From the NCBI GenBank assembly GCA_012514865.1, contig JAAYZO010000034.1, positions 1 through 49,862 of the forward strand: a stretch of DNA of 49,862 nucleotides. The letters run 5' to 3'. The DNA is from Lentisphaerota bacterium. GTDB lineage: Bacteria; Verrucomicrobiota; Lentisphaeria; Oligosphaerales; JAFGRS01. Positions 5,031 through 14,375 of this stretch are shown piece by piece. A model generated the notes under the pieces. It made no database searches. It was not told the DNA's origin and saw nothing but the letters and a program-made list of their open reading frames with translations. The position numbers and the translations under genes are program-made. The first letter of the stretch is position 1. Each line of letters opens with the position of its first letter.

Positions 5031-7022
5031 ATGGAGAGCCGGATGACGACGGGTCGGACGAAACTGAAGGTTGCCTGTCCAGGCTGTCGGCAGAAGCTGG
5101 ATGTGACGGATCTGGAACCCTTCACGCGGGCTGATTGCCCGCGCTGTGGCGGGCCGGTGATCGCGCCGAAACGCTTCGCTGCGCTGCTGCTCGAGGAGCC
5201 GCTCGGGTCGCGTCGCGGTGTCGCGGCCTACAGGGCTCTTGATCTGACTCTGGACCGCGAGGTCCTGGTGCGCATTCTGGAGCAGGACGCCGGCCGCCAC
5301 GGTGCGGGCTTTCAGGCGTTGGCGCGGCGGGCCGCGGCGGTGAATCACCCCGGGGTTCTGCCGATCTACTCCTGTGGCGAGGAGGATGGCCAGCCGTACG
5401 TGGTGAGCCAGTTCATGTTGGGTGGGCTGTGGTCGGTGATGCTGGGCGAGGTGCCGGGCGTCTCGGAGCGTCTGCGTCTTGGGCTGCCGTGGGTGCAGGC
5501 GGTGGCGGGGGGGCTGCAGGCGGCGTCGGCACAGGGCCTGGTGCATGGCGCGGTCAGCCCGTTCAGTCTGTTCATGGACACCGACCGGCAGGTCAAGGTC
5601 GGCGACTTCGGCCTCGACCTTCTGCTCTTCGGGAACGCGGCGCCGGGCGCCGAGGCCTCGGCGGACCTGGCCGGCTATCTCAGTCCCGAGGTCCTGTCGG
5701 GCGGTCCGGCGTCCATGGCTGCCGACGTCTTCGGCGTCGGCGCGCTGCTGTACCACGTCTTGACCGGGCGGCCGCCCTGTCCGGCCGCGGATGGCGCCGC
5801 GGCGTTGCGGTACTGGTCGGACGGCGGGGTGCCGGAGTCGCCGCGGCTGGACGGCGAGGCGGTCCCCGCGGACCTGTCGGCGCTGTGTCTGCGGATGCTG
5901 TCGGCGGCGGCTTCTGAGCGTCCGGCCGACTTCGGTGCGGTGCTGGCGGGCCTGGGGGTGCCCATGGCAGCGTCGGCGTCACGTCGGGCGGCCGAGGGCG
6001 CCTCAGTGGCGGGCCTGCGCGCCCGGGTCGGGGGTCGGGAGGCGCGTCAGGCCGAGCGCTCGGAGTCGGCGTCGACGGTCTCGGCCGCGGCGGGGGTGTC
6101 ATCGGGTGCCGCGGCGGCCTCAGCGGCGCCGCGTCGTCGCCTGGGCTGGGTGGACGGCCTGATTGCCTTGGGGTTGCTGGTTCTGGCGGCCCTGGGCGGT
6201 GGGCTCTACGTGCGTTCGCACGGCTGGCCGTCGTGGCTGGTGCAGCCGCCGCCCCCGCCGCCCCCGGTTGCCGCGCCGGCGGCGGCGCCGGCGGCGGTGC
6301 CGGCCGGGTCGGCCGGGTCGGCCGCGGCGGTCCCTGGTGCTGGTGGTGCCGCGCCTCTGGGGGCCGACGCGGTGCCGCCGGCGGCGGCCGGAGTGCCGGC
6401 GTCGGCGTCGCCGGCGTGGTCGGGCGCGGCTGCGCCCGAGGCGGTTCCCTCGGCGCCGGGCCTGCCGCGGCCGCGGCCGCAGCCGGCCGGCATGGACTTC
6501 GTGGGTGCCGCGGCCGACCTGGCGCAGTACCTGAAGGCGCTGCCGCCGGCGGCGGTGGCCGACGAGCGCGAGCGCCTTGAGCTGATCGGCGACACGCGGG
6601 ACTACCTCGTCAGACTGATGACCTATGTACCCTTCCTCGAAGGCCGCGAGACCACCGTCCGGCTGCTGGCCGGGGAGCCGCTGAAGGGCTCGCTCGCCTA
6701 CTGCAACCGCAACCAGCTCGGCCTGCGTCGGGCCTCTGACGGCGCCCTCCAGACGATCGCCTGGACCGACCTGGCCTTCGATCAGATCGTCGAGTTCATG
6801 GACTTCTACATCCACCTGCGCCGCGACCAGAGCGAGAGCCTGGGCGGTCCGCGGCAGGGGCAGGTCCGCAAGGAGGTCGCCGAGGACTGCCTGCGCGCCG
6901 CGGTGCTCTGCGACTGGTACGGCCGCGGCGACCAGGCCAGGCGCTTCGCCAGCCAGGCCGTCGCGTCGGACCCGTCGACGCGGCAGCGCCTGGCGCGGCT
7001 CCTGCCGGCGGCGCTGCCGTAG
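5031..7022 (+). CDS. Membrane-anchored Ser/Thr-kinase-fold pseudokinase with N-terminal zinc ribbon
   Basis: The N-terminus has CPGC...CPRC. The kinase fold is recognisable (VGDFGL, YLSPEV, DVFGVGALLYHVLTGRPP), but VAIK is VLVRIL, HRDLKPSN is VHGAVSPFS and the Gly-loop is degenerate. A TM helix (LIALGLLVLAALGGGLYV), a Pro/Ala-rich linker and a ~170-aa C-terminal domain follow. The start at 5031 is my choice; the ORF opens at 4818. Confidence 0.65.
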   Translation: MESRMTTGRTKLKVACPGCRQKLDVTDLEPFTRADCPRCGGPVIAPKRFAALLLEEPLGSRRGVAAYRALDLTLDREVLVRILEQDAGRHGAGFQALARRAAAVNHPGVLPIYSCGEEDGQPYVVSQFMLGGLWSVMLGEVPGVSERLRLGLPWVQAVAGGLQAASAQGLVHGAVSPFSLFMDTDRQVKVGDFGLDLLLFGNAAPGAEASADLAGYLSPEVLSGGPASMAADVFGVGALLYHVLTGRPPCPAADGAAALRYWSDGGVPESPRLDGEAVPADLSALCLRMLSAAASERPADFGAVLAGLGVPMAASASRRAAEGASVAGLRARVGGREARQAERSESASTVSAAAGVSSGAAAASAAPRRRLGWVDGLIALGLLVLAALGGGLYVRSHGWPSWLVQPPPPPPPVAAPAAAPAAVPAGSAGSAAAVPGAGGAAPLGADAVPPAAAGVPASASPAWSGAAAPEAVPSAPGLPRPRPQPAGMDFVGAAADLAQYLKALPPAAVADERERLELIGDTRDYLVRLMTYVPFLEGRETTVRLLAGEPLKGSLAYCNRNQLGLRRASDGALQTIAWTDLAFDQIVEFMDFYIHLRRDQSESLGGPRQGQVRKEVAEDCLRAAVLCDWYGRGDQARRFASQAVASDPSTRQRLARLLPAALP

Positions 7023-7028
7023 GGGCGC

Positions 7029-7345
7029 GGGCCGCGGGGGCGCGGGCCGCGGGCTCGGGACACGGACGGACGCAGCGCGGGCTTTGCCCGCAACCCAAAG
7101 GGTCGAGGGTCGGGTGTCGGGAGTTGGCTTTACCGGGCCGCGGGGGCGCGGCCCGCGGGCTCGGGACACGGACGGACACTGACAGGCACGGACGGACACG
7201 GACGGGCCTTGCCGGCTGCGGCGTCGGTCGGGCCGCGGGGGCGCGGCCCGCGGGCTCGGGACACGGACGGACACCGACAAACACGGACGGACACGGACGG
7301 GCCTTCCCGGCTGCGGCGTCGGTCGGGCCTTGCGGGCTCCGGCGT
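7029..7345. repeat. Composite tandem repeat: partial copy (7029-7071), two 95-bp copies (7135-7229, 7230-7324; 4 mismatches) and a degenerate tail
   Basis: Each copy starts with the hairpin GGGCCGCG-GGGG-CGCGGCCC and contains 4 x 10 bp ACACGGACGG (minus strand CCGTCCGTGT). Aligned base by base. Confidence 0.9.
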
Positions 7346-7390
7346 CGGGCGTCCGGCGTCGGGCGTTGGGCATTTCGTCGCCGGGTGCGG

Positions 7391-7419
7391 TTGCGTTCCT
7401 GTGTTTTGGTCACTATGGT
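7391..7419 (+). promoter_or_regulatory. Sigma70-like promoter upstream of rpsA (TTGCGT-17 nt-TATGGT)
   Basis: Read directly. It sits in the only AT-rich patch of the intergenic region, about 115 nt upstream of the ATG. Confidence 0.4.
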
Positions 7420-7533
7420 AGTTAATTCGGTCCCGATATCGTTGCGGCAGGGCGTCATTGGGCGTCGCTGCGGGCCTGTTGCCTGGCAGTGGCTGCAGCG
7501 GTCGGGGAACCAGACTGAGGCACTAGAGCTGAC

Positions 7534-9333
7534 ATGGCAACCAACACCAACCAACCCGCGCATCTCGATCTCGACAACATGCCCAGCATGGAGCAGTTGC
7601 TGGAGCAACAGGCCACCAAGGCCGCCTTCCAGGAAGGCCGCATCATCACCGGCAAGATCGCCGAGAAGCGTGACAACGGCGTGCTGCTGGACATCGGTTA
7701 CAAGGCCGAGGGCTTTGTGGACCGCGAGGAGTTCAAGGACTGGGAGAGCGTTGCGGTGGGGCAGGTCGTCGACGTCTACCTCGAGGAGATCGAGGACGAA
7801 GACAGCATGCCGGTCCTGAGTGTTCGCAAGGCCGAGCTGCAGAAGGCCTGGGACAACATTGTCGAGAACTACAAAGAGGGCAGCACGATCCGCGGTGCGA
7901 TTCGGCATCGTGTCAAGGGCGGCCTGATTGTGGATGTGGGTGTCGAGGCGTTTCTGCCGGGTTCGCAGGTGGATCTCGGTCCGGTGCGGAATCTCGATGA
8001 CTACGTCGGCAAGGAAGAGGACTTCAAGATTCTCAAGATCAACCCGGACCGCCGGAACATCGTGGTCTCGCGCCGCGAGCTTCTGGAGGAGGCGCGTGCC
8101 GAGCAGCGTGCCCGTCTGCTGTCCGAGCTGTAGCCGAACGAGATTCGTCGCGGCGTGGTGAAGAACATCACCGACTTCGGTGCGTTTGTCGACCTCAACG
8201 GCATGGACGGCCTGCTGCATATCACCGACATGTCCTGGGGCCGTGTGAGTCATCCGAGCGAGGTGGTGAAGGTCGGCCAGGAGATCGACGTGATGATCCT
8301 GGATGTCGACCGTGAGCGTCATCGCGTCAGCCTGGGTCTGAAGCAGAAGGAAGGCAATCCGTGGGACACGGTTGACGTCAAGTACCCGATCAACTCGCGG
8401 GTGAAGGGCCGTGTGGTGAACGTCATGCCGTACGGCGGTTTTGTGGAGCTTGAGGAGGGCATCGAGGGCCTGATTCACGTCTCCGAGATGAGCTGGACGA
8501 AGAAGGTGAACCGTGCCAGTGACGTCCTGCAGGTCGGTGACGAGGTTGAGGCGATGGTTCTGGACGTCCAGAAGGACGCCCGCAAGATCAGCCTGGGCCT
8601 GCGCCAGACCATGGAGAATCCGTGGGATCTGATTGCCCTGCAGTTCCCGAAGGGGACGAAGATCAAGGGCAAGGTCCGGAACATGACCAGCTACGGTGCC
8701 TTCATCCAGATTCAGGATGACATCGACGGCATGGTCCACGTCAGCGACATGAGCTGGACGCGCAAGATCAACCACCCGAGCGAGGTCCTGCAGCGCGGTC
8801 AGGAAGTCGAGGCGGTGATTCTGGACATCGACCCGAGCCAGCAGCGCATTTCGCTGGGCATGCGCCAGTTGATGGACGACCCGTGGTCGAGCATCGAGCA
8901 GCACTACCACGTCGGCGACGTGGTGGAGGGCAAGGTGACGAAGCTGGCCTCGTTTGGTGCCTTCGTCGAGCTGGCGAACGGCGTCGACGGCCTGATTCAC
9001 ATCTCGCAGCTCTCCGGTGAGCGTGTGAACCGGGTGCGCGACGTGGTGAATGTCGGCGACCCGGTCAAGGCCCGCGTGGTGAAGATCGACGCCGAGGAGC
9101 GTCGCATCGGGCTGAGCCTGAAGGACGCCTCGGAGGATTCCGAGTACGCGGCCGAGTTCGAGGGGATGCGTTCGATGTCCGACCTCCGTCCGGGCGAGGA
9201 CCTGGTGGATGTCGGCAATGTGTTCGACGAGGCCTTTGCCAAGGCCGCGGGCGACGCGGATGCGTCGGCGGCCGCGGCGGCGGCGGAGGACGAGGATGCG
9301 TCGGAGTCCGACACCGAGCCGCGTCAGGGCTGA
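7534..9333 (+). CDS. rpsA: 30S ribosomal protein S1 (six S1 domains), reading frame interrupted by an in-frame TAG at 8131-8133
   Basis: ORFs 7534..8133 and 8155..9333 are in the same frame. Six S1 modules are present (e.g. VVKNITDFGAFVDLNGMDGLLHITDMSW, VVNVMPYGGFVELEEGIEGLIHVSEMSW). The TAG falls where E. coli S1 has Q in ...[11 protein letters not shown]... Confidence 0.9.
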
Positions 9334-9347
9334 CGACGGCGTGGGGG

Positions 9348-9376
9348 CTCCGGCGGCGCTGCGGGTGTCGCCGGAG
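9348..9376 (+). terminator. Hairpin after rpsA (CTCCGGCG-13 nt-CGCCGGAG) followed by TCTCTC
   Basis: 8-bp perfect inverted repeat 15 nt after the stop. The U-tract is weak. Confidence 0.4.
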
Positions 9377-9418
9377 TCTCTCACGGGTCTGTGGGCTGGA
9401 AAAAGCACAGGCGCCAGC

Positions 9419-9446
9419 TTGCAGGCCATTGCGGACCGCCTATAGT
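9419..9446 (+). promoter_or_regulatory. Sigma70-like promoter for tRNA-Thr/tuf (TTGCAG-16 nt-TATAGT)
   Basis: Read directly. The -10 element ends 24 nt before the tRNA 5' end. Confidence 0.5.
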
Positions 9447-13924: not shown

Positions 13925-14332
13925 ATGTCCGACGAAACCAAAGTTGCGGTGTCCCAGGAAATGGAGAGCTTCATCTCCTACATCGAGAAGCTCACGGTGC
14001 TTGAGCTGTCGCAGTTGGTGAAGGCCCTCGAGGATCGCCTCGGGGTCAGCGCGGCGGCCCCGATGGCGGTGGCGGCGGCGGCGCCCGGTGCGGCGGCGGC
14101 GGCTCCGGCGGCCGAAGAGAAGACCGAGTTCAACGTCATCCTGACCTCGGGCGGCGAGAAGAAGATTGCCGTCATCAAGGTGGTTCGCGAGATCACGGGT
14201 CTGGGCCTGAAGGAAGCGAAGGACCTGGTGACCGAGGCCCCGAAGCCGGTCAAGGAGAACGTGAGCAAGGACGAGGCCGACAAGATCAAGGCCAAGCTCG
14301 AGGAGGCCGGCGCGACGGTCGAACTCAAGTAG
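13925..14332 (+). CDS. rplL: 50S ribosomal protein L7/L12
   Basis: ...[24 protein letters not shown]...Ala-rich hinge...[35 protein letters not shown]...[14 protein letters not shown], ending in a TAG TAG double stop. Confidence 0.97.
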
Positions 14333-14375
14333 TAGTGCGCTGTTCCGCAGCATCTGTTTCCGCATAACGGACCGT

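Follow-up and report, generated by a model that had tools for sequence, protein, structure and literature searches.

An in-frame TAG codon at the domain 2/domain 3 boundary of rpsA in a Lentisphaerota metagenome-assembled genome, most likely a draft-genome blemish

The window analyzed here, a stretch of 49,862 nucleotides, corresponds to contig C82 in its entirety, the longest of the contigs in a metagenome-assembled genome (MAG). The MAG has a size of 5.53 Mb and a GC content of 70%, is distributed over 1021 contigs with an N50 of 7.2 kb, and was estimated to be 91% complete with 5% contamination. The named relatives of its S1 protein are MAGs of the Lentisphaeria, Kiritimatiellaeota and Verrucomicrobia.

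The rpsA gene for ribosomal protein bS1 is located on the plus strand of the window at positions 7534 to 9333. Its reading frame starts with an ATG at 7534, extends over 199 codons (7534–8130) and is interrupted by a TAG at 8131–8133 (codon 200). It then continues for 399 codons (8134–9330) up to the genuine terminator TGA at 9331–9333. The peptide around the TAG is ...RARLLSEL*PNEIRRGVVKNITDFGAFVDL..., where the asterisk marks the stop. If the TAG is read through, the product has 599 amino acids, with six S1 stretches (Pfam PF00575) and an acidic C-terminal tail. This product scored above the cut-offs of two NCBIfam equivalogs, TIGR00717 (626.6 vs. 577) and NF004952 (753.9 vs. 524). It therefore has the score and the six tandem S1/OB domains of a bS1 protein as defined by TIGR00717, whereas the frame encoding it is interrupted once. 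The sequence-only reading, made from the letters of the DNA, had named the gene rpsA and had reported the in-frame TAG with its flanking peptide. Both statements agree with our results.

The third Pfam S1 stretch covers residues 199 to 270, and the TAG thus falls on the first residues of S1 domain 3. This places it at the boundary of domains 2 and 3 (d2/d3), as had been proposed. The part upstream of the TAG comprises d1-d2, which is the ribosome-binding part in E. coli, and the downstream part comprises d3-d6 and the tail. The protein shares all six S1/OB domains and their order with E. coli bS1 (PDB 6h4n, chain y) and is collinear with it over residues 18 to 538 (E = 7e-136). The differences are the TAG, which is found at the position of the E. 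coli Gln in LLENLQEG, as the sequence-only reading had aligned it, and the longer acidic C-terminal tail of the MAG protein. The crystallized d3-d4 fragment 7a05 starts at the residue that matches the TAG.

The downstream part is still fully coding-like. A codon-usage score trained on the long open reading frames of the MAG itself was 0.75 downstream of the TAG and 0.79 upstream of it. The earliest possible restart after the TAG is a GTG at 8155–8157, preceded by GCCGAACGAGATTCGTCGCGGC. No AGGAGG-like or other Shine-Dalgarno-like motif was seen just upstream of this codon, in line with the earlier statement that it has no evident ribosome binding site, and a restart there would delete the first strand of d3. 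On the minus strand, an open frame of 877 codons (6796–9429) runs antisense to rpsA. It was rejected as a gene because of its negative codon score (−0.11) and is regarded as a by-product of the GC content of 70%.

For the comparison with related genomes, rpsA orthologues were searched in six frames in 30 relatives. They were found in 29 of them, and codon 200 was covered in 26. None of these 26 orthologues has a stop at this site. The residue is K in nine, E in seven, Q in six, R in two and D and T in one orthologue each, and in all four genomes of the same family it is Lys, encoded by AAA or AAG. In the same-genus genome G001 (JAGVUW010000866, "Verrucomicrobia bacterium WAS_Bin_35"), the site reads CTGTCCGAGCTG-AAG-CCGAACGAGATT, compared to CTGTCCGAGCTG-TAG-CCGAACGAGATT in the window, and the flanks of 12 nt on each side are identical. 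The sequence-only reading had derived the TAG from CAG by a single C-to-T change. In view of the identical flanks and of the AAA/AAG codons of the family, this derivation was not upheld, and the change is instead to be read as an A>T transversion at 8131 in an ancestral AAG (Lys). The same reading had suggested a comparison of rpsA among close relatives, and the sense codon found in 26 of 26 orthologues favors an error or a minor allele.

At the DNA level, rpsA of the window is 96.8% identical to that of G001. A total of 47 differences was counted over 1458 aligned nucleotides, comprising 44 synonymous changes, two replacements and the TAG. Upstream of the TAG (7534–8130) 16 of the 17 differing sites are synonymous, and downstream of it (8134–9330) there are 29 differing sites, of which 28 are synonymous and one is non-synonymous. 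Over the folded part of the protein (residues 1–540), the TAG is the sole departure of the window from the family consensus. Had the stop been present for more than a small fraction of the branch between the two genomes, many replacements would be expected in an untranslated d3-d6, but the window has none of its own there. This leaves three possibilities, namely a very recent stop, continued translation of the downstream part, or a stop that is not real. Taken together, the nearly pure synonymous divergence and the match to the consensus downstream of the TAG argue for a stop that is either extremely recent or not real.

In G001, rpsA is spread over two contigs. The codon on one of them (G001:C334, L008) that aligns with positions 8881–8883 of the window encodes Thr (ACG) in place of Pro. 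This Pro belongs to a DPW motif and is found in all of the other 25 S1 orthologues. The change in G001 is a C>A, and it is possibly the same kind of blemish in the sister MAG.

Sequence collections were also searched for the site itself. A 28-mer across it, with an N at position 8131, matched the same-genus MAG only among genome contigs and gave no match among metagenome contigs. Exact look-ups with both S1 fragments and with the neighboring EF-Tu gave no match. The best full-length protein match to S1 in a collection of 5.8 billion sequences was only 93% identical.

Next, the use of UAG in the MAG was analyzed. Release factor 1 (RF1, prfA) is present and intact (443 bits, cut-off 423). Among the 2264 crudely called genes of the MAG, 278 (about 12%) are terminated by TAG, while 83% of the true gene ends are TGA. 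Within the window, TAG was verified as the terminator of rplL, fusA, rplC and rplB and of the open reading frame upstream of rpsA, which had been termed a pseudokinase. The earlier use of these genes as examples of genuine TAG termination was therefore borne out. The rplL gene ends with a tandem TAG TAG (14330–14335), and in rplB the TAG is directly followed by a TGA. In these highly expressed genes, the second stop backs up the TAG.

Using ARAGORN, 46 tRNA genes were found in the 91% complete MAG. None of them has a CUA anticodon, and the set is incomplete, since neither tRNA-Tyr nor tRNA-Ile was found. Even at a very relaxed threshold (-ps90), no CUA anticodon occurred among 887 mostly spurious candidates. 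ARAGORN also called two tmRNA genes in the whole MAG, with the tags ANTELALAA and AKAKWCYA, the second of which may be a false call or may come from a contaminant contig. A profile search of the MAG for PylS (TIGR02367) gave no match, while the control search exceeded the cut-off in one control genome, and a tRNA-Pyl was not found in the MAG either. A loss of RF1 with disuse of TAG, or a CUA tRNA, would indicate reassignment, and PylS would indicate pyrrolysine. None of these signs was found. The presence of RF1, the regular use of TAG as a terminator and the lack of a tRNA-CUA and of PylS in the MAG make a codon reassignment unlikely, as had been assumed. For the RNA around the stop (8110–8230), the predicted fold was no better than that of shuffled sequences (z = −0.96). 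The base following the TAG (+4) is a C, and in E. coli termination at a UAG in this context is weak. Programmed read-through is without support because its hallmark, conservation of the stop at the same site, is absent from the relatives (0 of 26 orthologues).

All contigs of the MAG were also scanned with the codon-usage score for stops flanked on either side by strongly coding sequence in the same frame and lacking a nearby restart codon. At least six such lone in-frame stops were detected in conserved genes besides the one in rpsA, five TAG and one TAA. On contig C668, the Pfam domain of an M20 peptidase is interrupted by a TAG that takes the place of the second Glu in its conserved EE motif, and the codon is GAG or GAA in three relatives. 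We take this Glu-Glu motif to be the catalytic/metal-binding pair of the enzyme. Another TAG is located in the domain of an alpha/beta hydrolase (C28), and others are found in a PIG-L family protein (C1000) and in an Hsp70-like protein (C101). In G001 the codon is GAG in all three cases, and for the Hsp70-like protein also in other genomes. The fifth TAG is in a GH51-like glycosidase (C3) that has no orthologue in the relatives, and the TAA is in a large secreted protein (C987) that is intact in the relatives. Counted on the strand of each gene, the six stops are at positions 2211 (C668), 335 (C28), 9825 (C1000), 81 (C101), 648 (C3) and 7618 (C987), with the genes on C668, C28 and C987 encoded on the minus strand. 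A further in-frame TAG on contig C6 was rejected, as it marks a true junction between a NuoF-like and a NuoG-like gene, with an ATG 18 codons downstream.

Including rpsA, the lone stops amount to six TAG, one TAA and no TGA. With the codon usage of the MAG, 2.6% of random substitutions create a stop, and TAG accounts for 68% of these. The ratio of 6:1:0 fits the prediction for random single-base changes. The five resolved stops are all transversions to T, namely four G>T (GAG to TAG) and the A>T in rpsA, and no transition was observed. Even with no bias towards transitions, CAG>TAG and TGG>TAG would account for 30% of the opportunities to create a TAG. This all-transversion spectrum is unlike natural mutation and closer to a technical artifact such as the G>T oxidation class, in a small sample in which rpsA itself shows an A>T. 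Since the stops replace Lys as well as Glu, they argue against a recoding of UAG to a single amino acid, except, formally, Glu.

For one of these sites, both alleles were found in the bin. The contig ends C101:3-434 and C492:2-433 of the MAG share an overlap of 432 nt that contains 10 mismatches (2.3%), and at the position of the stop C101 has TAG whereas C492 has GAG, as in G001. The bin therefore mixes variants, and for C101 the stop is not the only allele. This overlap suggests that strain variants were co-assembled, and the MAG as a whole combines closely related variants, perhaps also with errors. A similar overlap was seen between C3 and C773, with an amino acid identity of 95% over 164 residues.

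The error load of the window was determined for 6,372 codons of conserved genes (rpsA, and tuf through rplB) in comparison with G001, G003 and G004, except for residues 287–334 of G001 rpsA, which mapped to another S1 domain. A total of 24 lineage-specific replacements was found. These are conservative and in many cases involve more than one base, and the comparison showed no further disruptive change. Since these replacements resemble ordinary divergence, the contig is not visibly error-rich, which neither supports nor refutes an error at 8131.

The MAG contains a second S1-like gene, located on the minus strand of another contig (C196:4435-6231). It is intact, encodes about five S1 domains and is 35% identical to rpsA. 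Its product passes NF005208, the model for 30S ribosomal protein S1 (400 vs. 368), but fails TIGR00717 (294 vs. 577). In nearly all of the 30 relatives this paralogue co-occurs with an intact canonical rpsA, in some of them within open frames of 870–985 amino acids. As it accompanies the canonical gene in the relatives, it is not a replacement for it.

In E. coli, a chromosomal rpsA lacking domains 3 to 6 (Δ3-6) is lethal (Duval et al., 2013, PLoS Biol, PMC3858243). Domains 1 to 3 are required for viability and for the docking of structured mRNAs, and S1 without d1-d2 does not dock mRNA on the 30S subunit (PMC3858243). With a stop at codon 200, only d1-d2 would be made, exactly as from the Δ3-6 allele. 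Unlike this engineered deletion, the MAG keeps an undecayed coding sequence for d3-d6 behind the single stop.

The nonsense allele could be genuine, with full-length S1 produced either by read-through of the weak stop UAG-C or with the help of an amber-suppressor tRNA, possibly one inserting Glu, whose gene lies in the part of the genome that was not assembled. If the allele were real, UAG would stand in an essential gene that needs read-through, as in known amber suppression and UAG recoding (supE-type tRNAs, pyrrolysine). In favor of this explanation, GAG is the codon replaced by four of the five resolved in-frame TAGs, including the one in the M20 EE motif. Under uniform substitution, at least four of five corresponds to p ~0.035. 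Glu also occurs at S1 position 200 in 7 of 26 relatives. However, GAG is also the commonest codon one step from a stop and makes up 21% of the nonsense opportunities. The weak UAG-C context and the incomplete tRNA set of the 91% complete MAG, in which a suppressor could sit in the missing ~9%, would be compatible with such a mechanism. Against it stand the intact RF1, the lack of a CUA tRNA even in the relaxed search and the use of TAG as terminator in ~12% of the genes, including highly expressed ribosomal protein genes. Only about six in-frame TAGs were found genome-wide, one of them with an intact GAG allele in the bin (C101/C492). In addition, no stimulatory RNA structure was predicted, and none of the relatives' orthologues has the stop. 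We consider this explanation improbable. The broader form of it, that the lineage carries amber codons in several conserved genes including rpsA and partly decodes UAG, most consistently as Glu, by means of a suppressor tRNA or some unusual read-through mechanism whose gene lies in the ~9% of the genome missing from the assembly, appears more doubtful still. If it were true, such partial decoding would make the organism a natural amber-suppressor strain in the PVC superphylum. A reassigned TAG or one encoding pyrrolysine, for which the ancestral Lys might be taken as a hint of a lysine derivative, is effectively refuted. PylS, tRNA-CUA and tRNA-Pyl were not found in the MAG, RF1 is present with TAG as a regular stop, and the other resolved in-frame TAGs replace Glu and not Lys.

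The stop could also be genuine without being decoded. In a bipartite S1, a d1-d2 anchor of 199 amino acids and a separately initiated d3-d6 part, starting at GTG 8155 or nearby, would act in trans. The position of the break at a domain boundary, where the d3-d4 fragment 7a05 also starts, and the coding-like character of both halves with their nearly pure synonymous divergence from G001 would fit this arrangement. The synonymous pattern is, however, equally expected if the stop is not real. No relative with a split gene was found, and the GTG has no ribosome binding site and would cost d3 its first strand. Moreover, d1-d2 alone is lethal in E. coli, and S1 without d1-d2 cannot dock mRNA on the 30S (PMC3858243). 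A bipartite S1 is therefore regarded as very improbable. The same applies to rpsA as a very recent true pseudogene whose role was assumed by the S1-like gene on C196. The paralogue is intact and passes the model for 30S ribosomal protein S1, but it fails TIGR00717 and occurs next to an intact canonical rpsA in nearly all relatives. Furthermore, the sequence downstream of the TAG shows no decay.

The TAG in rpsA is most likely a consensus error or a minor or defective allele in a strain-mixed MAG, while the organism makes a normal S1 with Lys-200. A single A>T substitution at 8131 would have entered the consensus of the fragmented, strain-mixed assembly, either as a sequencing or assembly error or as a minor non-viable allele carried over by the assembler. 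The living organism would then almost certainly make ordinary S1 of full length, with six domains and with Lys (AAG) at residue 200. An error or minor allele is favored because the TAG is unique to this assembly, all 26 orthologues being open at the site, and because no recoding machinery was found while TAG is a normal terminator. It is also favored by the fragmented state of the draft, its other lone stops and the allele mix of C101/C492, by the artifact-like spectrum of the resolved stops, and by the lethality of the equivalent Δ3-6 allele in E. coli. The case resembles consensus errors and strain variants of short-read MAGs in several respects: the substitution stands alone between perfectly matching flanks, the bin is fragmented and 5% contaminated, further lone nonsense codons occur and, for C101/C492 but not for rpsA, an intact allele is found on an overlapping contig. 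From these likenesses we infer that the stop in rpsA belongs to the same class of artifacts or variants as the other lone stops of the MAG. Some points speak against this reading. The TAG is not at a ragged contig end but 8 kb into the longest contig, and this contig is not visibly error-rich. In addition, the A>T in rpsA is unlike the G>T at the other four resolved sites, and the tRNA set is incomplete. Of the three options given by the sequence-only reading, the base-call or population variant is accordingly favored, whereas programmed read-through and a genuinely bipartite S1 gained no support (no stop in 26 orthologues, z = −0.96, no split relative).

The stop in rpsA is most likely a blemish of a draft genome and not new biology. 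In-frame stops of this MAG should not be taken as biology without read support, and conserved genes of the sister MAG are probably affected by lone nonsense substitutions as well. A real stop would make this a notable case of recoding, in which an essential translation factor is either split or read through where two of its domains meet. It would also offer a natural test of whether these two parts of S1, the ribosome anchor and the RNA-binding arm, are able to act separately.
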